A stretch of 56,495 bases of DNA, the filler included, from Stramenopiles sp. TOSAG23-6 (taxonomy: Eukaryota): NCBI GenBank assembly GCA_900128565.1. It is 4 parts of 4 records of this genome, joined end to end, with 100 filler letters (N's around TTAATTAATTAA, not from the genome) between each part and the next. Parts side by side here need not be neighbours in the genome. Positions count along the whole stretch, not along the records: positions 42,520 to 56,495 come from LT636151.1; 3 more parts are not named here. The stretch is one strand, 5' to 3'. The translations under genes and the position numbers were made by a program. Positions 391 to 55,805 of the stretch are shown here, piece by piece (position 1 is the first letter of the stretch; the number at the start of each line of letters is the position of its first letter). The notes under the pieces were generated by a model, which was not told the origin of the DNA, did not search any database, and saw only the letters and a program-made list of their open reading frames with translations.

Positions 391-3300
391 ATGTCTGAAT
401 GGTTTCATAATCCAAGAGAAGAAGCAGCCAAAAGAGAGGCCGTAGCTAACGTTGTTGCTGCTACTTTGGCTCTCAGAGAAATAACAGAGTCTGTTTCATC
501 TCTTGACAACGCAGAACGTGACATCCCATGGATTGCCAAATTAGGAAGAGAGATCGTACAATCAATGATTGATTCTATTAAAGTTGGTAAAAATACCAAG
601 CGTTTTGTTGTAAATGGACTACGTGGTCTCGTTGATGAACTTGTCGAATTTCTCAAAATAATTCTTTGTAGAAAGCCTAACAATCAAGTTGCTTCGGGTG
701 GAAAGCCTAACAATCAAGTTGCTTCGGCAATCTTGACTGTCAGCGAAATTTTTTCATACCTTCACTTGGATGTGAGACAAAGCCATGATCGCGATGTTGT
801 GACTGAACTCGCCAGACTACTTACAAATGGTTTATGTTTTCTCTCCAAATCAAAAATGGAGGCTGAACATACAGAGAAGATCACCGAACATACAACTTTA
901 TCCCAGCATGAGCAAATCAATTCGGAACTTCAACTTTATGCTGAGACTACAGGTGGTATTACGATTGATATAAATACATTTCTCAAAGTAGGATCTATAT
1001 ACAATACCAACGAAATAGCCAAACAAAGATCAGAGACTCACGTGGAATGTAGCAACTTATTGATTAACTTGAGTTCCTTACTATTCTCTACTACAAATGT
1101 GACCCTCCAATTTCGAGTAGCGTTTCTCATTTGTACTCTTTGTCTTCAGATGTTTCCAATGACTAAAGGACAATCCAGTAAATGCCAAAAAAAAGATATT
1201 TTATGTTTATTTCAAAATTCAATGAATATGGATACTGCTGGTCAATCTATCGAATTCAATCCTGGTTCTCAAATTGTCAAATTATATGATTCGCAAAAAG
1301 ATGAAATCCAAAATAAGGAATGTGGTATTTATGATTTCGTACATAATACCAATATTTCAAAAAATGATATTTCTGTTGTACATTGTAATGCTGTAAACAT
1401 TTGCACACAAAACTCAACAACTCCGATATTTGNATCAAAAAATTGTCAAGAAGACGTTACAATTGAAGAATGTCATGCTCATTTTGGTACTTTTGATTTG
1501 TATTTTGTACCGTCAAGTTCTTGTCGTTTTGAACTAAGGAATGGACTACCCGCTCTAAATTATTTTGATGTATGGTTTATTTTTTTTTTCAATTTTAATT
1601 TTAATTTTTTTTTCGTACGGAATTTCGTACCTAACGATTGTTTTTGTGATTTTGTATTTTTTCACAACACATGATATTGCATATCTTGAATGGTCTAAAG
1701 AAAATAGAGAGATTGATATAATACTTCGTCATAACGACTTTTCGTTATCAAATCCTATTCTATCAAATCTAAGCACTCTACTTAGTGAAGATAACTCTCA
1801 TATTTCTATTCGACTACGTTTTGATGATCGCGAAGCATTTACACGTAATCTTACTACAATTCGTCGACATATAAATTCTAAATTGAGACCTCGTCAAAGT
1901 GTCTGTCAAAATCGTACGTACAACGTAGCAAGTAGTCTTGCTGCGGGAAATTGTTCTCAAATAATTGCAAATGGTTCCTCTTCAACAGATCCGAAAACAC
2001 CTCTTAATGTACGTTTTCATAATGAATTTAATTTTTTTTAGTTTGTTTTTGCATCATTCACTTCAATTATTAATTATTTGACAAAAATATTGTACTAAAC
2101 TGTTTAAAAATTTATTTTTTTTCACAATACAGCGATTGGAAAATAAACCCGACTCTGATGTACCCGACTCTGATGTACGTTTTCAATTTTTTTCTTAATT
2201 TTTCGTAGGAAATTTTGTACCTAACAGTTTTTTTTCGAAAAAAAAATTTTGAATTTGTTTGTTATTTTTTCGTAGAAAATTTTGTACCTAACAGTTTTTT
2301 TTTTTGAAAAAAAATATTTCTGACAAAATATACGAGTCCTAAAAGTATATTTAATTTTAAAGTAAGTACTGAAATTGAGTGTCAACCGATGATTAATTCT
2401 TCTAAATCTTCTGATCAAATCTCAAAAAAACAATTACATGTCGCGAATCATACTAGTAGTAGTAGTAGGCCAAAAGACCTCTGGAATCTCCGCGGAACTT
2501 TGACATCTGTAACATCAGTTTTGAATGATGCAAATGAAGCAGAACTTAAAGAAGCTTGTAAACAATTAGGATTAAATTCTAATTGTGAACAAAAAGATTG
2601 GATGATCTGTCGTATCCAGGTAGAATTAATAAATTGTGGGAATATTATCAGAGATGATCAAACTATTGTATGTTTTCATGGTTAATTTTTTTTTGCTACG
2701 AAATTTCGTATCTAACGATTTAAAACTAGTTGAATAATTTTAAATTTTGAGGATTTTTTTTCATACGAAATTTTGTACCTAAAAAATTTAATAAAAATAT
2801 ATTTTTCACACTACATGTAAGTGATATATATATAATGTATGCATGCTGATTTTTATTTCGTTTAATCGTATCTAACTTTTTCATCCATGTATCTTTCACA
2901 ACACAGGTATTAAGAAATAATCAAAAACAAGAAACACGAAATGTATCTGATCAAATACAACAAACACAAGATAAAAATAATCAAAAACAAGAAACACAAG
3001 ATAAAAATAATCAAAAACAAGAAACACGACATACATCTGATACTGGTCAATCTGGTTCTGCCCAAGTAGTTAATCTGCCACAGGGACGCCATGATTCGTA
3101 CAGTATATGTAATATTGATGGTGGTGATAAAATACCTCAGATTCCTGGACTTTCACCAAAAGACAAAAGCACATTATACGATTACAAAAAATGGTGGAAA
3201 AACTTGTCTGAAAAACAAAAAATAAAGATGAAATCCGATTATACAACGTTTTTATCAAATAAAGTCCTAATTCGTGCTAAAAAAGCGAGAATGAAACAAT

Positions 3301-5395: not shown

Positions 5396-6732
5396 GTATG
5401 TGCAACTGGTGTTTTACGCCCTCTTGAAACTGATTCTGCTCTAAGAATGATTATTATGGCAATGAGAATGTTGACCTGTATGGATGAAATGAATGAAGAA
5501 TTAGCATTAAATCTTCGAATTCGTATAGGAATGCATTCTGGAGATGTCACTGCCGGAATGATGGGTCAGAAACGGTTGGCTTTTGATTTATTTGGTCCCA
5601 CTGTGGAAATTGCAAATGAAATGGAAGCTGAAGGAGTAGCTTGCCGGATCCATGTCAGTAAAAACACAGTTGACGAAGTGCGAGGATCAAATGTTCATGA
5701 TATGAATGACATTTCATTTGAACCACATCCAAAGGCTGATGCTGACGGATGTATCCCAATTCCTGGGTACGGTTTAATGCAGACTTTTTTAGTCGTTGAT
5801 CATACCAGAGAAAATATTTTACAAAACTCAAAAAATATCAATTCAAATGCATTGCATAAAAAATCAGTAAATACTTCTTCCTCTTTAGGATCAAAATTTG
5901 ATTCTGAAAGTGGTGAAATCTCAGAACAAACAACAATCATTCAACAAAATAGTAATTCGAATAACACTAAAGAGTCATCTACTGTACATGAAGCGGATAC
6001 CAAAAAACTTCAGGAGAATCCAGCTAATATACAAAAAAGTTCAATTTGTAATGTAAGTGGAACGAAATCAAGCACAGGTATATCTAATATTCCACCAAGG
6101 GAAATCAAAGCTCCGTCACGAAAAACATCGACTCACTCCGAATTTACAGAAGAGTTCCCGAATATAATGACGTCACGGGGAAGAACGTCGCAAAAAACAA
6201 ATCACAGTCGTGGAGCTTCACTAAATTTATTAGAACAATTTGCACATTCTAAGAATCAAAGACGGCGTGAATTATCAAGGACTGTTTCTTTTTCATCTGG
6301 TATGTTTTTATTGTTTTTTTTATTTTTATTGTTTTTTTTTANTTTTTTTTTTTNAAATATTTTTATTTTTTTTTATTGTTTTTTTAAAAAAAATATTTTT
6401 ATTTTTTTTTGAAATGAGAAAATTTCATATCTAACATTTTTGTTTTACAAATATTTCTTCAAAATACATGTCGAGGAAAGAATTCTCGTAGAGTTTCATT
6501 TGAGTGTGACAATGACACTGTCGGTGGAACTCAGCAAATTCTAAATTCGTTAGGTACAAAATTTGGTTCGAAGTCAATTTCGAATTTACGCGGTGCACCT
6601 CATCCGGACAATGAAAATGATTCACAAACAAAACTTCCCCTTCATAGAAATAGAAATACTTCAGATGAATTAGAGATAGAGTCTAGTAAATTACGCCATA
6701 TGAGCTCGATGCCTAATATGGGTAGGAAATAG
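5396..6732 (+). CDS. Class III adenylate/guanylate cyclase domain protein, 5'-partial; exons 5396-6299 and 6470-6732
   Basis: VCATG...LRIRIGMHSGDVTAGMMGQKRLAFDLFGPTVEIANEMEAEG...RIHVS is the C-terminal half of a class III cyclase domain. It begins right after an element acceptor (tacat, 5395); no upstream exon is visible. Confidence 0.75.
6300..6469 (+). mobile_element. Introner-like intron, GT...AT (in-frame AG 6 nt downstream is an alternative)
   Basis: tg|GTATGTTTTTA, long T tracts, catatctaac, ttcaaaataCAT|gt; open frame continues to TAG at 6732. Confidence 0.7.
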
Positions 6733-6929
6733 TAAAATAATTTGTTTATTATCTGTTCAGAGTAATTTAAATAAATTGTAATTAAAAGAACACGACATCA
6801 CATTACTAAATTATTGCTTTCTCTTTTTGTCTAGCTAAGCTAGTAGTAGGTGTGTTGAATCTCTCTACTGAATCAATTAGTATAAGTTCGGAAAACGTAT
6901 TTTAGCCTAGATACTATAGATAGTTAATG

Positions 6930-8927
6930 TTAAAACTTCAACATTGAGAGACTTGGTACTTGACGAATTTCAGTTGGAATTGAACCAGATAGTTTGTTGC
7001 CACCCAAGTGCAAAACTTTAAGCTTTGTTAGTTGACCGATTTCCANTGGAATTGGACCAGATAGTTCGTTGTCATTCAACTCCATGCTTTTGAGGTTTGT
7101 TAGTTGACCAATTTCTTTTGGAATTGGACCAGTTAGCATGTTTCTTAACAAGTATAACCAAATGAGGTTTGTTAGTTGACCGATTTGCGTTGGAATTGGA
7201 CCAGATAGCTCGTTGTTACTCAAACTCAAACGTCTGAGCGTTGTTAGATGACCAATTTCTTTTGGAATTGGACCACTTAGTTTGTTATCAGACAAGCTCA
7301 ACTCTGCGAGCTTTGTTAGTTGACCAATTTCTTTTGGAATTGAACCAAATAGGTTGTTTTCATCCAATGTCAAGTGATTGAGATTTGCTAGTTGACCAAT
7401 TTCTTCTGGAATTGCACCAGATAGTTGGTTGCTTCTCAAGTACAAATATTTAACATTTGTTAGTTTACCAATTTGATTTGGAATTGTACCAGTTAGTTTG
7501 TTGCCGTGCAAGTACAAACCCCGAAGATTTGTTAGTTGACCAATTTCTTTTGGAATTGGACCACTTAGTTTGTTGCCGTCCAAGTACAAATATTCGAGCT
7601 TTGTTAGTTGACCAATTTCCTTCGGGATTGAACCAGTTAGTTTGTTATCATTCAAATTTAATCTTTTGAGATTTGTTAGCTGACCAATTTCATTTGGAAT
7701 CGGACCAGATAGTTTGTTTCTGTACAACCACAATGTTTGGAGATTTGATAGTTGACCAATTTCATTTGGTATTGAACCAGTTAGTTGGTTGAGACTCAAG
7801 TCCAAATCTTCAAGACTTGTTAGCTTACCGATTTCCGTTGGAATTGTACCAGATAGATTGTTCTTTGACAAAGCCAACCATTGGAGATTTGTTAGTTGGC
7901 CAATTTCCGTTGGTATTGAACCAGTTAGTTCGTTGTGTGACAAGGCCAAAACTTCGAGATTTGTCACTTGACCAATTTCTTTTGGAATTGAACCAGATAG
8001 TTTGTTGAAAACGAAATTTAATTCTTTAAGACTTGTTAGTTTACCAATTTCTTTTGGTATTGAACCAGTTAGTTGGTTGAGACTCAAGTCCAAATCTTCA
8101 AGACTTGTTAGCTTACCGATTTCCGTTGGAATTGAACCAGATAGGTCGTTGGCATTCAAGTCCAGTGTAGTAACACTTCCTTCAGTACACGTAACTCCAT
8201 ACCATTTACAAATATCTAAATCTGTGTTCCAATTATCTTTACGCTTCCATTTTTTTCCATTTGTTTTTTTATACAATACAGTTAAAAATTCTCTTTCCAA
8301 TAACTTACGATGAATACCTTCTACACGTCGTAGCCATTTGTCACAGGGTTCGTTTTTATTTCTTGTAAGAGTGGTTATCTTTTCCTTGAAGCGTTCAAAA
8401 CTTTCAAAAAACATTTTGTGAATTCTTTGTAAACGGTGAAGCCACTTCAATAAAGGTAATCTTCTGAAGAGCCTATGTTTGATATGTTTTTTCAAATGTT
8501 TGATAAGTTCTTCCTTTTTATCTTCAGTGGTGTATCCTCCAAATATTTGGACAACTCTTGCAACAGTTTTTGATAAGTAATTTTCATAATATTCATCATC
8601 TTGCTTTACATCTTGGCTGATATGCTGATGTAGCGCACGATTAGTAGCAGACAGAGATACTATGTCAGAAGCCGTGAGAAAATGTCTCCTTAGATGACGC
8701 ATACCAGGATTCGTCAACTTTTGCACATTGACCGCATTGACATATTGTTGATTGGCAGCTTCATGCACAATAGAACCACGCGCTCGTTCAGCTGCGGTGA
8801 GAAACGAGGACTCAATGTGATTTTCTTGTGAAGGCTTTGACGGCTTTGACTCTGAAGCATTGTAATTGTAGAGAATAAACGTTAATAACCCTAAGCCTAA
8901 TACCATGTACTCAGTGAATCTTTTCAT
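6930..8927 (-). CDS. Leucine-rich repeat protein: N-terminal hydrophobic segment, LRR N-cap, 17 x 24-aa plant-type LRRs; intronless
   Basis: Repeats LxxLxLxxNxLSGxIPxEIGQLT; cap LYKKTNGKKWKRKDNWNTDLDICKWYGVTC; N-terminal MVLGLGLLTFILY. Confidence 0.9.
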   Translation of the reverse strand: MKRFTEYMVLGLGLLTFILYNYNASESKPSKPSQENHIESSFLTAAERARGSIVHEAANQQYVNAVNVQKLTNPGMRHLRRHFLTASDIVSLSATNRALHQHISQDVKQDDEYYENYLSKTVARVVQIFGGYTTEDKKEELIKHLKKHIKHRLFRRLPLLKWLHRLQRIHKMFFESFERFKEKITTLTRNKNEPCDKWLRRVEGIHRKLLEREFLTVLYKKTNGKKWKRKDNWNTDLDICKWYGVTCTEGSVTTLDLNANDLSGSIPTEIGKLTSLEDLDLSLNQLTGSIPKEIGKLTSLKELNFVFNKLSGSIPKEIGQVTNLEVLALSHNELTGSIPTEIGQLTNLQWLALSKNNLSGTIPTEIGKLTSLEDLDLSLNQLTGSIPNEIGQLSNLQTLWLYRNKLSGPIPNEIGQLTNLKRLNLNDNKLTGSIPKEIGQLTKLEYLYLDGNKLSGPIPKEIGQLTNLRGLYLHGNKLTGTIPNQIGKLTNVKYLYLRSNQLSGAIPEEIGQLANLNHLTLDENNLFGSIPKEIGQLTKLAELSLSDNKLSGPIPKEIGHLTTLRRLSLSNNELSGPIPTQIGQLTNLIWLYLLRNMLTGPIPKEIGQLTNLKSMELNDNELSGPIPXEIGQLTKLKVLHLGGNKLSGSIPTEIRQVPSLSMLKF

Positions 8928-17829: not shown

Positions 17830-18094
17830 AGCATTCATACTATAGTACTTTGGTCTATTTATCATAACATAATATATTCTCTAGGTTATTTTATATCTTT
17901 AATTATGAATTAAATTTTATATGTAACAGCATATCTCAAATGGAATCTTATTTTTTGATTTTTGACTTTTGAGACGTGTTGGGACTTTTTCATACGAAAT
18001 TTTGTACGTAACTAACAAAAACATCAAATGTTTGAAATATTTTTGTAGAGACTTTTGAGTCAGAGTATTTCATCTACATTGCCGTAAAAATTAT

Positions 18095-37160: not shown

Positions 37161-37502
37161 TATATTTACAGTGCAAAATCTGCACTTCAATACTTTTGGA
37201 GAGGCTGTAAGCTGTGTGTGAGTGTTTCGCGCATGGCGGTAAGGTCCTTCGGTCACTCACGCGTCAATTATTACTAATCGTAATATTCCATTTATTTTTT
37301 GATTGATCCTTGATTTTTTATTTCGTGTTTTTTGTTGCTGTCATGACTTTGTGACTTTCGTTCGTACTTCGTAGCTAATGAAAGTGAAACTATTACCTTT
37401 TCCTATCTAGCTAGGACTATAGTAGGTAAAAATAGTAAGTAGCTGCAATGCTGCACTTACAATAATACTACTAATACAATTAGAATGATAATATGCCAAT
37501 AA

Positions 37503-38034
37503 TCAGTAATTCTTTAAATACAGCAAAGTGATACGCAGAACGAGACGCATAGTGATACNNNNNNNNNNNNNNNNNNNNNNNNNNNNNNNNNNNNNNNNNN
37601 NNNNNNNNNNNNNNNNNNNNNNNNNNNNNNNNNNNNNNNNNNNNNNNNNNNNNNNNNNNNNNNNNNNNNNNCAGTAATTCTTTAAATACAGCAAAGTGAT
37701 ACGCAGAACGAGACGCATAGTGATACGCAGAGTAAAACGTATAGTGAGACGCAGAGCGACACGCCATGGGCGATACGCATAGCGAGACACAGACCGATAT
37801 ACAGAGCGAGACACATAGCGATACGTAGAGCGAGACACATGCCACTAAACAGTAATTCTTTAAATACAGCAAAGTGATACGCAGAACGAGACGCATAGTG
37901 ATACGCAGAGTAAAACGTATAGTGAGACGCAGAGCGACACGCCATGGGCGATACGCATAGCGAGACACAGACCGATACACAGAGCGAGGTACATAGCGAT
38001 ACATAGAGCGAGACACATACCAATAATCAGTAAT
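37503..38034. repeat. Tandem repeat, 178-bp unit built from degenerate 12-bp subunits
   Basis: cagtaat-initiated units at 37672, 37850 and 38028 (178 apart), a partial unit before the N gap, and subunits like atagcgagacac / agagcgagacac. Confidence 0.9.
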
Positions 38035-49435: not shown

Positions 49436-52400
49436 ATGCTAGTAGATGAAGACGGTAAAGACAACTCTATTGTAAATGAAGAGTCCAAGCCACTCTTGAG
49501 TAGCACCGACTCACAATTTAAAGAAAATACTAACGAAAATCAAACAGTAAAAAACGTTTGTTGGAATCGACATTATGTTATCATAATTCTCGTGACGTTA
49601 ACAGTTATAACTGCTATCTCTTTGGTAGTTGCACTTAAACTACAACCTACAAAAAAAAGCCCAAACAATGTAATTACTCCAAACAATGACGGGGGAGCTG
49701 AAGATAAAAGTTTTTTTGATCGAACAAATGAGGTGACTAGTTTAGTCCAGGGCACCCAAAACTATGTAAAGAAAGCTAAACGAGACGACCGCACTTACAA
49801 ATATATCACTCTATCTAATAAGTTAGAGGTTCTACTTGTCAGTGATCCTTCTACAGATGTTGCTGCTGCATCAATGTCAGTGGGTGTTGGGTCTCTTTGT
49901 GACCCTGAGCAATTTGCAGGACTTGCACACTTTTTGGAGCATATGCTTTTTTTAGGTTCGGAAAAATTTCCAAATGAAGACCAGTTTGCAAAGATAATCT
50001 CTCAACATGGTGGGTTTACTAATGCTTATACTGCATCTTCTGAAACGAATTATCACTTTAATATTGGCGAGCAATATCTTAAAACTGCGTTAAAAGTTTG
50101 GAGTCAATTTTTTGTATCGCCACTTTTGACAAAGAGTGCCATTGAGCGTGAAGTGAACGCAGTGAACAGTGAGCACGAGAAAAATATAAATAATGATGCA
50201 TGGAGATTCTCTCAGCTACTAAAATCTACTTCATCAGCATCACATCCGTATCACAAGTTCGCAACAGGTAATTTAGACACACTTTTGAAGTCTAATTCAA
50301 ACGATAATTTGGAAAAGGCTTTAAAAACTTTCTTTACACAATATTACGTAGCAAATAAAATGAAGCTTTCTATTTTAGGTAGTGAATCTGTGAATGATCT
50401 CCAAAAATATGCCAAAACACTATTCCAAGATATAAAAATGTCTGCTGATGATTCTGATTTCTGTTACTCTCCTTCGGTGTACGTTTTTATCCCTACCCTT
50501 AATTTCAAATTTATTTTTTTCGTACGAAATTTTGTACCTAACGAATTTTTTTTGAAAAAAAAAAATCCTTTTCACAATGCATCGTACGCGAGCCAGATAA
50601 GCTTGGAGTTCAATATATTCTTAAACCTATTGCAAAAAAGTATACTTTAGAAGTTTTTTGGTTCTTCCCGCTGATGCGTACTCATTTCAAAATCAAACCT
50701 TTAAGTTACATTGCAAGTCTTATGTATGTTTTATTTTTTTGAAAATTTGAATTTGTTTTCGTACGAAATTTTGTACCTAACAATTTTTTTTAGATTTTTT
50801 TTTGAAATATTTTTCGAAAATACATTAGCAATGAGGGCAAAAATTCTTTATTATCGAATCTAAGAAAGAAAAAGTGGGCTGATAATGTTGCAGCTAGTGA
50901 GGGGGATGAAGGTTATGATTACACTATATTTTCAGTGTATTTCTCCTTGACAGAATTAGGAGTTACAAAGGTTGACGAAATATTGCTTCTTCTTTTTGAA
51001 TTGATAGGTAAAATGCGCCAGGAGGGTGCTGAGGAATGGCGTTGGCGTGAACTTCAAAAGATATCACAATCTTCATTTGACTATCAAGAAAAAATGGATC
51101 CTTCTGATTATGTTGAATTTATATCAAATGCAATGCAACAATATCCAAGGGTTAATATTCTTACTGGTAGTTTCATTTTCGAAAATTATGAAGCTGACGT
51201 TATTCGTAATGCGATTGATATGTTGACCCCAGAGCGAATGGTTGTAATGGTTGGCGATCCAAGTAAAAAAGATGATTTTTATACAAAGGAAGAACATATT
51301 TATAAGACCAAGTATACGGATAATAATATACCCAAAGAGTTTCTTAAAAAACTCGGGAATGTATCAACCACACACACAAAATCCTTATCGCTTCCACTGG
51401 AAAATCAATACATTTCTACAGATTTTTCATTATCCCCTAATGTTCAAAAATATCATGATGAAAAAAGTCCTAGCACGGATAGTAAGAATTGCGATCAAAA
51501 TTCCTGTAGACCAAAGTTACTGGAGAGTCAAAGTCGTCACAGAGTTTGGGTTCGACCCGACCGTTACTTTGGAAACCCTCATATAGACCTAACGATCTTA
51601 ATTGACATGGGAAGGGGAGAGAAAAGAGAAGTTCAAGAAGTAGAAACTCCATCTGATAAAATGCGATTTAAAAGATCGGCTACCAGTGTATATACTGATG
51701 AAATGATGGAGGTTCAGGGAAATGACAGTAAAAAAGTAAATGTGAGCAGTAGCATTGTAGAAACAAAGAAGCTCTTACGACAAGAGTTGATTAAAATTAT
51801 TTATGCTAATGTGCTGTCACATGCGTTAGTAGAAAAAATGGCAGATGCTTCGGTAGCAGGATATTCAGTCGATTTCGATAGAACAAGCACTGGAGTTTCA
51901 CTGAATATTCGAGGATTTTCAGAAAAGTTTGACAAAGTTTTGAAAGAAACTTTAGATTTTATTAGAACTTTTCTTTCAAGCGAAGAAAACTTTGAAAACT
52001 TTGAAGAAATTGTACAGAGCATTACAAGAGGATGGGAAAATTTCCCCAAACAACAACCTTACGAAAAGGCATTGTTTTTGCTTAAATATACACTTCGAGA
52101 ACCTGTATTTACACCTGCCGAATTCCTACAAGAATTACATAAAACAGAGTCGGAATCTAAAATTAGTAATGGCAATGGCGATGAAAGTCCTTCCCCAGTA
52201 TCTTCTTCACTAAAAGCAGGTAATGTACCAGAATCTAAAAGTAGTAAAGACTCAGTAATACATGAACTAAAAAGCAGTGATGGAGGTCCCATAAGTCCAC
52301 CAAAAGGACCACCAAAAGCTAGGTTTAAAGAGAAACAAAGGCGGGAGAACAACGGTCGATTTCGTGCAGTGAAAACTCTTGCACCTACCGCCCCGAGTAG

Positions 52401-53925
52401 TACTAAATTAACCAATCCATTGGGTTCTCAAGATGTGCATACATCTTCAAGTGTTGAAAATAAAACAGGAAAAATACCAGAAAATCCAGATTTTCAAAAA
52501 TCAAAAAAGAAACACAATGTAACAATACAAGAAGTGAAGGATACCATGGCAGAGCTGTTTCAAGATGTCTGTCTTGAAACATTAATCTATGGAAATATTG
52601 ATATGGAACATGGTAAAAGAATTACATCAATCATTGAAGGAGAGACTGGTTTCAACGTTAACAAAAAGAAAACGCAATCAGGTTCTAGTGTACGCTGCCA
52701 ACGAAAATTTCTCAGTAATAAAGAACTGCCATCCTCCAAAGATTCAAATGCAATAAGCACTGTAATACAACTAAAAGATGAAAATGAAAATGAAAGTAAT
52801 TCAGCATGTATTCTTAATTTTCAAATTGGCCCACGAGGAACGCCACTTGATGTAAGACTTCAACTATTGAATGAAATCATACAACTATCGATTTTCGATG
52901 AATTGCGAACAAAACAACAGTTAGGATATATTGTACGATCACAAGTATCTTCAAATCCATCAAGAAATGATCTACTAACCATTGTCCAAAGCCCTGTGAA
53001 AGATGCGGCTACTTTGTCTGAATTAACTATGAAATTTTTTAGCACATTTGAAAAACATCTGAATGCTTTAGGCAAACCGGAATTCGAAAATAGAGTTAAG
53101 GCACTTGCACGATTGAAAGAGAGAAAATTAAAATCTCCGTCGGAGGAAATACATTACCTTCTAAGTGAAATAGTGTCAAGGCAATATGAGTTTAACAAGA
53201 GGTTTTTGCATGCAGATGAGTTTAAAAAGGTAACAAAACAGGAAATCATAGATTTATTTAAAAAACATATTTTTGGAGATGGTGAAAAGAAAATATTAGC
53301 CATTGAAACGTTTGGAAAAGACCACACAGTTCCTAAGGGAGGTGATAAGAAAGTAATACATTCAATGGAAGAATTAAAGCAGTTACGAAAGACATTGAAA
53401 ATATATCCTCATCGATCTCAACGCACACCCAAAGAAGATAATGATGTCGAAGAAAGCAAATCGAGACCTGCTGATGTTCCTACTGATGATCCTGATTCAA
53501 CAAGTAGTGGTACAGGACCAAGTGATGCACCAGAACCTACTCCACCTGCTGATCTTTCTTCACCTAAATATAAAAATAGTCCATCTTCTACTCCTATATC
53601 TGCACCTGCTGAAAAATCATGTGTTAAGCAAAAAGACGCTGCTAAATGTGTCAATGATCTCACGCAAGGAGATGTATATAAGAACAAAAAAAGCTGTAAT
53701 GCTGTGAAAGCCTATGCGCTTTGCTTTAGCAAACATGATTGTTGTAATAACAAAAATAAAAAAATAGTAGAGGAAGAGTCAATGAAGTTCAAAGTTTCTG
53801 AGGATGAGGACGCAAAAGTTTGTAAAGTTGGCTGCGATTATTTACCACGTGGATCATCTTCGACTTTATCTATTGGAGTTACATCTATCGTTTTGGCAGT
53901 TGTATCATTTTCAAATTTTGTATGA
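49436..53925 (+). CDS. M16A (insulysin/pitrilysin-type) zinc metallopeptidase, membrane-anchored; exons 49436-50478, 50583-50723, 50826-53925
   Basis: GLAHFLEHMLFLGSEKFP (HxxEH), NAYT, REVNAVNSEH, HPYHKFATGN, KPLSYIASLISNEGKNSLLS, FDELRTKQQLGYIV. Confidence 0.9.
50479..50582 (+). mobile_element. Introner-like intron, GT...AT
   Basis: gt|GTACGTTTTT...ttcgtacgaaattttgtacctaac...cacaatgCAT|c; opens the otherwise hidden exon VREPDKLG...KPLSYIASL. Confidence 0.8.
50724..50825 (+). mobile_element. Introner-like intron, GT...AT
   Basis: at|GTATGT...ttcgaaaataCAT|t agc aat gag; gives YIASLISNEG, matching insulysin YLGHLIGHEG spacing. Confidence 0.87.
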
Positions 53926-54302: not shown

Positions 54303-55805
54303 ATGGATTACTCGAAATGGGATAATCTTGACACTGGAAGTAGTGGTGACGATTCTGATGATGCGTATGGACGCTTGCCACCATCTCTACCCACATTTAA
54401 CGACACGTCGCTTTTGCAGTGTGGTGTTCAAGAGCGAAAAATTGGTCAGCTAGCAGTAGATGCCTGTCTGGAGAAGCTTGCTTCTGGAGCTGACCCAAAT
54501 AGCTGTAATAGAATGGGCCAGACTGCGTTGCACATTGCTGCCATCTGGGGTGGAATGGGAGTTGGGCGAACTCTACTCAAAGCTGGGGCTAATGTAAACG
54601 CTCGTAATATGATGCGTGGTTCAACGCCTCTTATGATGGCTGCTGGACGGGACCAAGCTGAATTTGCAAAGTTCCTTCTCGAGAACGGTGCAGACCCCAC
54701 GATGCGGGATACTTCCGGTCAATGTGCCTGGCAAATGGCTTCTGACGAGTCTCTTCGCATGCTTTTAGGAGGTCCATCGCCAGAGCTCACTGATGCGACT
54801 CTCGAAGGAAATCTTCAAAGGGTCAAAGACGTCCTTCGCCGCAATCCCGAGCTTTTAACCGTGCGCAATGGTGACGAAGAAACAGCCCTTACACTTGCTC
54901 TCAAAGAAAGACATTGGCCAATCGCTAGATACTTTATCAATCACCCTGACGCGGCATCTCTAATAAATTTAGAAGATTCAGACGGCGCATATCCTCTGCA
55001 CCTTTGTGTTCGTATGGAAAATCTCCCTCTTGTTGCTGAATTGCTGAAATGTGGTGCTGATCCTAACCAGAAAGCCTATCGTTATACTGAATATACCAGT
55101 GGTAGGTTTGATAAAATAGATAAGGCTACTGGAGAAAAGACGACTGTTTCAAACGAACATTGTACGCCCCTACTTGAATGTGCAAAAAATGGTAATATCG
55201 ATATTGCGAAGTTACTCATTCAGAGTCGATGTGACGTTGACGCGACAGATGGCGATGGATGTACAGCTCTTTATATCACGCTTGATGAATACGCTGATGC
55301 TCTTGATGATGATGAATCTGAATCTAAATCTAAAGATCGTATCGAGAAGAAAAAAGCGATGGCGGCTCTTTTGCTATCAAGTGGTGCATCCCCAAATATT
55401 GGTAACGCTTATATAGGCTACGATAATACACTTCTTGCTTGGGCATCATCGTCAAAAAATATTGAAGTTGTTAAACTTCTTTTACAATACAAAGCAGACC
55501 CAAATATTGCTGGGAAATCTGGAATGTACCCGCTTCATATGGCAACTCGTGTAAACTGTGTCCCAATACTACAATTATTATTGGAGGCTGGTGCTACGAT
55601 TGATGTAAAGAACAAAACAGGCCAAACTGCTTTATGTACTTTTTTTTTTTTTCACATTTTTTTTTCATATGAAATTTTGTACCTAACGATTTTTTTTTGT
55701 TAGTAAAAAAAAAATATATTTTTTCACAGTACATATCTATCCCAAACTTGTAAGAAGACAGATATTACAAACCTATTATTACAAGCAGCTGCCGCTCTTA
55801 TATAG
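54303..55805 (+). CDS. Ankyrin-repeat protein; exons 54303-55635 and 55735-55805
   Basis: Many repeats (GQTALHIAA, GSTPLMMAA, GAYPLHL, GMYPLHMA); last repeat GQTALYLSQTCKKTDITNLLLQA is completed by splicing; N-terminal MDYSKWD motif. Confidence 0.9.
55636..55734 (+). mobile_element. Introner-like intron, GT...AT
   Basis: at|GTACTTTT...gaaattttgtacctaac...ttcacagtaCAT|at; the CAG 5 nt upstream would break the ankyrin frame. Confidence 0.87.

Follow-up and report, generated by a model that had tools for sequence, protein, structure and literature searches.

Fritillaria borealis and F. pellucida splice with a U2 spliceosome and have many introns with non-AG ends, 3' AT being reported for 34% and 44% of their introns in the available text of PMC13326754. 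The same text reports that the 3' end reads YAY, a motif that frequently precedes the donor as well, as in the introns presented here. However, the main donors in Fritillaria are AG and the termini are very diverse, whereas the introns studied here have a GT donor and belong to one dominant family. U2AF is duplicated in Fritillaria, with divergent subunits, and there are two U1 versions with the same 5' ends, U1 divergence not being the route according to that text; here the U1 arm differs from the standard at three positions (comparisons with PMC13326754). In Entamoeba and Mastigamoeba balamuthi the U1 5' arm has co-evolved with an atypical donor, and the Mastigamoeba U1 has the same ACGUAC core as found here (available portions of 10.1101/2022.06.08.495308). 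The amoeban changes relate to intron positions +3, +4 and +7, and those portions show no acceptor other than AG; unlike in these amoebae, U1 is here also changed (C to A) at position 9, opposite the last exon base, which would mirror the AT that ends both exon and intron.

In Micromonas and Aureococcus, introners number in the thousands; they are short introns that resemble one another, carry a target-site duplication and have short inverted ends (PMC11282704, PMC9860276, as far as their available text goes). The present family shares the copy number and the duplication, and possibly the inverted ends. Introners too take one splice site from the duplicated target (available text of PMC11282704, PMC9860276 and PMC7789003). 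Their splice motifs are canonical (stated for Aureococcus in the accessible part of PMC7789003), while here the duplicated dinucleotide would be the acceptor whether it is AG or not. The main text of PMC9860276 contains neither 'MAST' nor 'stramenopile'. The non-canonical introns and introners of Amoebophrya resemble the present ones in being repeated and in having direct repeats, and perhaps also inverted ones, at non-canonical ends, yet they show no clear terminal signature, their inverted repeats measure 8-20 nt and U1 was not found, whereas donor, branch motif and 3' block are fixed here and U1 is present (comparisons with the available text of PMC7789003). Frequent 3' AT, duplication-derived splice sites and co-evolved U1 are separately known; their combination here appears to be new. 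In a literature search with subscription journals and supplements outside its scope, we found no paper on GT-AT introns or altered U1 in stramenopiles and none combining 3' AT, duplication-derived sites and co-evolved U1, and the main text of two MAST genome papers (PMC5778133, PMC12614181) makes no mention of non-canonical splicing.

The intron studied here lies in a window (the whole stretch of DNA analysed) of 56,495 nucleotides from Stramenopiles sp. TOSAG23-6. The host gene is assigned to the M16A (insulysin-like) peptidases by its HxxEH motif and by matches to Pfam PF00675, PF05193, PF16187 and PF22456. It is modelled as three exons (49436-50478, 50583-50723 and 50826-53925) that are open across 1,427 codons and keep HFLEH intact. 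Features are listed below; a slash marks a splice junction.

49436..50478, + strand: exon 1 of the M16A peptidase, with N-terminal hydrophobic segment, Peptidase_M16 domain and HFLEH zinc motif
50479..50582, + strand: intron 1, of the same family as intron 2, GTACGT…CAT, 104 nt
50583..50723, + strand: exon 2, 141 nt; its last bases AT (50722-50723) are the upstream copy of a putative 2-nt target-site duplication
50721..50731, + strand: donor region of intron 2, TAT/GTATGTTT
50724..50825, + strand: intron 2, the intron studied, GTATGT…CAT, 102 nt, phase 2
50759..50781, + strand: family core, a near-palindrome that leads into a branch-like CTAAC at 50777-50781, with 50780 as the putative branch A
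50792..50793, + strand: first AG 3' of the branch A, 13 nt downstream
50810..50825, + strand: 3' block, consisting of a U-tract that stops 11 nt short of the junction, followed by AATAC and the terminal AT
50826..50828, + strand: competing TAG
50826..53925, + strand: exon 3, with Peptidase_M16_M, M16_C and PqqF-like_C_4 domains

Compared with the M16A members insulysin and protease III, this peptidase has an extra N-terminal hydrophobic segment and a long C-terminal tail. The protein is hydrophobic near residues 45-70 and again in the C-terminal tail, after a Cys-rich stretch, unlike the soluble insulysins, and is possibly membrane-anchored.

The acceptor of intron 2

A sequence-only reading had placed this intron at 50724-50825, had noted CAT directly followed by TAG at the acceptor, and had proposed that splicing to CAT gives YIASLISNEG and splicing to TAG gives YIASLINEG. 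The sequence is as described, with GTATGT from 50724, CAT at 50823-50825 and TAG at 50826-50828, and both acceptors keep the frame and yield these peptides. That reading also gave YLGHLIGHEG for insulysins, a spacing compatible with CAT only, and the alignment agrees with it. Among 119 homologs (the 120 best of 2,445 listed relatives, with the organism's own model left out) the column consensus is Y-L-G-H-L-I-G-H-E-G, a spacing that the CAT join fits and from which the TAG join removes a residue; S-N in this peptidase replaces G-H ahead of the conserved E-G. A block of 25 columns, which starts at the upstream Tyr and extends to the downstream Leu, is gap-free in all 119, and with an alignment-free pattern two residues separate LI from E in 113 of the 119 and one residue in none. 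A profile of the homologs scored the CAT form at 594.2 bits against 587.5 for TAG (+6.7 for CAT), CAT being the top scorer among 12 in-frame acceptors of the intron. On homology, the predicted end of intron 2 is therefore confirmed as CAT rather than the adjacent TAG.

Use of the AG at 50792-50793 as acceptor leads to a stop at codon 418, so this AG must be skipped under either reading. The AG of the competing TAG makes up the first two bases of the Ser codon AGC, in a column that is Gly in 118 of the 119 homologs, and it probably arose by a single exonic substitution, GGC to AGC.

The database gene model for this gene uses TAG and also reads part of intron 1 as coding; it is a prediction and says nothing on actual acceptor use. 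The source label of this database protein points to a marine stramenopile of the MAST-3 group. Gene models for this organism would be wrong at such junctions, the database peptidase with its AG join and partly translated intron 1 being an example. Searches of transcript-derived proteins over the junction gave nothing beyond this model: exon 2 matched only the database gene model (one of two candidates), and residues 1-200 of exon 3 matched none of 572 shorter candidates. Five seawater metatranscriptome runs from two studies had 0.11-0.18 of words in common with a 9.9-kb stretch and carry no evidence on splicing. At intron 1 the four nearest AGs are all frame-breaking with the motif donor, and the alignment with the closest relative (P0002) runs gap-free through the CAT junction; the homolog profile is uninformative there, other ends scoring up to 3.8 bits above CAT.

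Similar competitions occur elsewhere in the genome. From 106 genome matches to branch…CAT/NAG, 30 loci were fetched, 21 of which had a recognisable donor, and 15 exon pairs were scanned. Only the glycerol-3-phosphate dehydrogenase gene (GPD1) was decisive. At its CAT/GAG intron the upstream exon stops at human residue 227 and the downstream part resumes at 230, a two-residue spacing present in all eight solved chains matching both exons; joining at CAT gives two residues and joining at AG gives one. GPD1 would thus give the same answer as intron 2 of the peptidase, namely CAT. The cases in Hsp90, a PLP decarboxylase, a C2 protein and an ABCA transporter (downstream exon only) were uninformative. 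The roughly 100 CAT/NAG introns, peptidase intron 2 included, are ready-made competitions between position and AG that can be read by RNA-seq alone.

The intron family, its register and its origin

The 23-nt core of intron 2 occurs 20 times in the window at no more than three mismatches and not at all in shuffles, and 2,265 exact copies are present in the 21-Mb assembly. Genome-wide, branch…AATACAT gave 3,995 matches and branch…AATACAG gave 162, both counts including duplicated contigs. The family was sampled over 816 kb from 77 sources, containing 251 unique cores. For 127 copies with both ends above 8 bits, the last two bases having been left unscored, the termini are AT (96), AG (15), TT (5), GT (5), AA (2) and four single cases. 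A looser cut gave 160 introns, 115 of them with exactly one open frame (at least 50 codons on both sides of the intron), 34 with none and 11 ambiguous. The frame is open at the motif end in 110 of the 115, with termini AT (87), AG (10) and other (13). Within this frame-supported sample, which consists of motif-bearing introns only, 87 copies end in CAT or TAT and only 10 have the terminal AG usual for U2-type introns; frequent YAT, with AG in a minority, is also the pattern of Fritillaria-type splicing. It had been proposed that AT is preferred over an adjacent AG. Homology speaks for this here and in GPD1, but it is not a base preference as such, because AG, TT, GT, AA and AC occur at the same position.

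Family members are 78-149 nt long, with the donor logo GTAYGTTTT. Of the 110 frame-supported copies 105 start with GT, a result favoured by the seeding of the donor matrix on GT. The other five start with AT (three times), TT and GC (L064, L082, L019, L074 and L040). The copy at L064:1060-1166 (+) reads AT…AC with AC upstream too, a known compensatory pair. Two copies in the window (2203-2292 and 2669-2816) carry two cores in tandem, which suggests that one copy inserted into another or that part of the element was duplicated internally. At 17990, 38240 and 44000 (+) and at 6549, 16670 and 56194 (-) the core motif occurs with no family ends that could be recognised; these may be decayed copies or copies outside genes. 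The window also contains a 72-nt tandem array (6877-8184) and a 168-178-nt repeat (37493-38027).

Four registers of intron 2 give an identical protein (50721-50822; 50722-50823, which reads AT..AC; 50723-50824; and 50724-50825, which reads GT..AT), so the terminal dinucleotides cannot be fixed from the peptidase junction alone. Across the family, where the -2 base has changed while the end stays AT, 10 of 11 cases are phase 1 (share of this phase 27.6%, p=2e-5). The -2 base is then the third codon position, which argues that the upstream AT is exon sequence and the intron GT…AT. A version of the test limited to synonymous changes points in the same direction and is non-significant (7/12 vs 1/6, p=0.15). 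In the scored copies the donor G is present in 127 of 127 and the T in 99%, and the two preceding bases vary like exon sequence. Codon-phase statistics therefore favour GT…AT over AT…AC as the probable register. U12-type introns have the donor consensus RTATCCTT, which is absent from the family donor.

The family has many similar copies at unrelated sites, as is expected of introners or MITEs. The flanking dinucleotides are equal in 90 of the 127 copies (67.8 expected), and non-AT termini equal the upstream dinucleotide in 12 of 31 (1.3 expected), so the end is not set by the identity of the last two bases. A repeated dinucleotide is what a 2-nt target-site duplication gives, and the AT end is probably a tolerated duplication. 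The inverted ends are limited to GTA(T)…(A)TAC, 3-4 exact bases, without covariation. A search covering DDE_Tnp_4 as sole transposase family returned five matches at two distinct loci, without the family's ends. These are PIF/Harbinger-type frames of 420 and 508 codons, one on G000:C4153 (L119) and the other on four near-identical contigs (L120-L123), flanked by long inverted repeats that are not the ends of the intron family. The first base of the downstream exon is G in 54% of the 127 copies and A at +2 is rare (856 of 3,995), from which the pre-insertion site would resemble CAT/G(T). Such a site is a palindrome and also the complement of the U1 arm.

Placement of the 3' end and the splicing components

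The sequence-only reading held that the site is set by element position or structure and not by AG scanning. Across the family a first-AG rule does fail: an AG lies between branch and end in 37 of the 100 frame-supported non-AG introns, 29 of the 37 being unable to keep the frame, and in 37 of the 100 the next AG is within 12 nt and frame-breaking. Genome-wide, AG at +4, which breaks the frame, is not depleted (265 seen, 259 expected). Two observations make the picture less tidy. Frame-keeping GT/GC-AG alternatives with a shifted donor exist for 23, 42 and 65 of the 100 at windows of 6, 12 and 24 nt. In addition, AG at +3 was seen in 106 of 3,995 copies against 220 expected from exon composition and about 132 from local A/G frequencies (A at +2, 856; G at +3, 701; all counts inflated by duplicated contigs). 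The depletion against local frequencies is about 20% and leaves room for a minor TAG isoform.

Position was correctly named as far as the local 3' block is concerned, and not as a fixed distance from the branch. The branch-to-end distance ranges over 22-58 nt with peaks at 33-35 and 42-45 (45 nt in intron 2); these distances, with intron lengths of 78-149, rule out a fixed ruler from branch point or donor. In 90 of 105 copies, 10-11 nt separate the end of the last U-run from the junction, a figure that is partly circular, as the ends were placed by a matrix including the U-tract and frame alone is independent. Most likely the 3' end follows the local U-tract/AATAC block, though conservation of the block may reflect shared ancestry and not function. 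Copies ending in AG less often keep the upstream AT (3/9 vs 73/85, p=0.001), which suggests that an in-register AG compensates a weaker donor or marks older copies. According to the available part of 10.1101/212811, a 3' AG is held by pairing of G-1 with G+1 and of A-2 with the branch A. The yeast structure has A-2 and the pyrimidine at -3 in contact with the branch A and Prp8, and most copies here retain both bases.

Genes for U5, U2, U1 and U4 snRNA lie head to tail in one cluster of about 640 bases (G000:C1146:9-645; L013, L118), with gaps of 2-23 bases between them, an arrangement suggestive of one transcription unit. U1 scored 54.1 bits, below the Rfam cut-off of 69.5, with the whole model matched at E 3e-12. 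Its 5' arm is changed (AAACGUACAUG) and is complementary to the family donor CAT/GTACGTTT. Over model positions 1-12 the arm AAACGUACAUGG, the same on two contigs, differs from the Rfam consensus AUACUUACCUGG at positions 2, 5 and 9, which face donor positions +7, +4 and -1, in the family T, C/T and T. Mean pairing over 110 donors is 9.3 of 11 with the genome's own arm and 7.0 of 11 with the standard arm; for the donor region of intron 2 the figures are 9 Watson-Crick plus 2 wobble pairs and 7 plus 1. No second, standard U1 was found: the search gave 58 matches to the standard arm at one mismatch against 68 for a control, and neither the three exact standard-arm matches nor one chosen near match had an Rfam match. 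The U1 arm was unmatched in a metagenome collection that may leave out near relatives, from which the intron motif was likewise absent.

The U6 ACAGAGA box, the U2 branch arm (GUAGUA) and the U5 loop are all standard. The GT donor shows complementarity to U1 as well as to the ACAGA box of U6, as for U2-type introns, and CTAAC at 50777-50781 would be readable by standard U2; this match is at the sequence level only, and the bases upstream of CTAAC pair imperfectly. The Prp8 alpha-finger matches that of human, including the residues aligning to yeast Gln1594 and Arg1604, whose roles in the alpha-finger are described in the available part of 10.1101/212811; with the finger unchanged, no step-2 adaptation was found. 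One U2AF65-like gene and Slu7 are present. In the incomplete assembly none of 15 zf-CCCH matches resembled U2AF35, and three U2AF35 motifs gave one match each, two spurious on inspection and the third at control level. Prp18, U11 and U12 gave no match there in searches run without a positive control. Absence of U2AF35, Prp18, U11 and U12 from an incomplete assembly shows little.

Weighing the explanations

The explanation we regard as probable is a GT…AT introner of the major spliceosome, with a co-adapted U1 and an acceptor placed by its local block. Intron 2 would be a U2-type intron with GT donor and AT acceptor, and one copy of a non-autonomous mobile element of about 100 nt (GTAYG…ATAC), presumably of transposon origin, whose insertion, mostly at AT, duplicates 2 nt. 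Of the two duplicates, the one upstream would remain exonic and the one downstream would become the last two intron bases. U1 with its rewritten 5' arm would read the donor CAT/GTAYGTTT, and standard U6 and U2 would read the donor and the putative branch point in CTAAC. The local block of U-tract, spacer, AATAC and two bases, through a postulated reader factor, would then place the 3' end, which would dock whatever its last two bases are, here with U instead of G at -1. The AG three bases on would be out of register and mostly ignored, and the main mRNA would be predicted to join 50723 to 50826.

Splicing of the family at AT could be combined with a large share, or most, of the splicing going to a directly following NAG, giving a peptidase one residue shorter. 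This would be consistent with the deficit of AG at +3 relative to local frequencies, with the existence of AG-ending copies (162, and the commonest non-AT end at 15 of 31), which suggests that AG is still favoured in register, with the TAG of the database model and with a peptidase already without the near-invariant Gly at the acceptor spot. We nevertheless judge it distinctly unlikely, since none of the 119 homologs has a deletion at that spot, the AG form of GPD1 would cut into a stretch whose length is constant across 8 of 8 chains, and frame-breaking AG at +4 has not been purged. Structure-guided excision, of the kind proposed for euglenid non-conventional introns or for Amoebophrya introners, seems very improbable; pairing between the inverted ends would present the two junctions, whether or not the spliceosome takes part. 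The minimum free energy fold of intron 2 does pair both ends, and in 49 of 105 copies the pairing of G+1 with base -3 has a probability exceeding 0.5, but the folds are weak (z = -1.66 for intron 2, 12 of 200 shuffles folding as well; family median z -0.83, with 15 of 105 below -2). Of 43 copies with C at donor +4, only 3 have a G opposite it. Among 20 copies with non-AT flanks, the flanks form direct repeats in 7 and inverted repeats in none, and a U1 matching the donor would compete with the hairpin. With no such compensatory support, a role of RNA structure in placing the 3' end, the other half of the earlier proposal, is unsupported, though conceivable.

An AT…AC intron at 50722-50823, removed by the minor spliceosome or as a U2-type AT-AC intron, would yield the same mRNA, and AT…AC is what one sampled copy (L064) shows in the main register; docking of an A+1/C-1 pair is known (available part of 10.1101/212811). 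Against this stand the near-invariant GT and the exon-like variation of the two bases before it, the fit of U1 and U6 to the GT register only, and the lack of a U12-type donor, with U11 and U12 not found in searches without a positive control, which together make such an intron highly improbable. It is scarcely credible that the inserts stay in the RNA, the gene being broken or mis-assembled or undergoing repair as DNA. In favour of this, searches gave no transcript-derived protein across the junction, and the metagenome collection, which may leave out near relatives, lacked the motif; but the three-exon model is open across all its codons with HFLEH intact, a frame is restored in 110 of the 115 copies that could be tested, and the U1 of this genome fits them. 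A bolder version of the preferred GT…AT introner can also be put forward, which we hold to be rather unlikely: the whole spliceosome would have been re-specified by the invading element from AG/GU…AG/G to AU/GU…AU/G, a single U1 (C9 to A) reading CAU/G at both intron ends, and U2AF35 and perhaps Prp18 would have been lost, so that RNA and not protein marks the acceptor. A U1 reading CAG/G at both intron ends was reportedly proposed in fission yeast by Reich et al. in 1992. Bearing on such a re-specification are the exon +1 G in 54% of 127 copies and the failure to find U2AF35 and Prp18 in the incomplete assembly.

With about 4,000 GT…AT introns, a Prp8 alpha-finger that is unchanged and a U1 arm that has been rewritten, this genome is a natural test of which 3' contacts are needed. 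These features also bear on how the spliceosome chooses an acceptor, and the genome tests the old idea of U1 touching the 3' splice site. Adjoining the peptidase is an ankyrin-repeat-like gene (54310-55760), in which a family copy near 55635-55720 starts with GTACTT.
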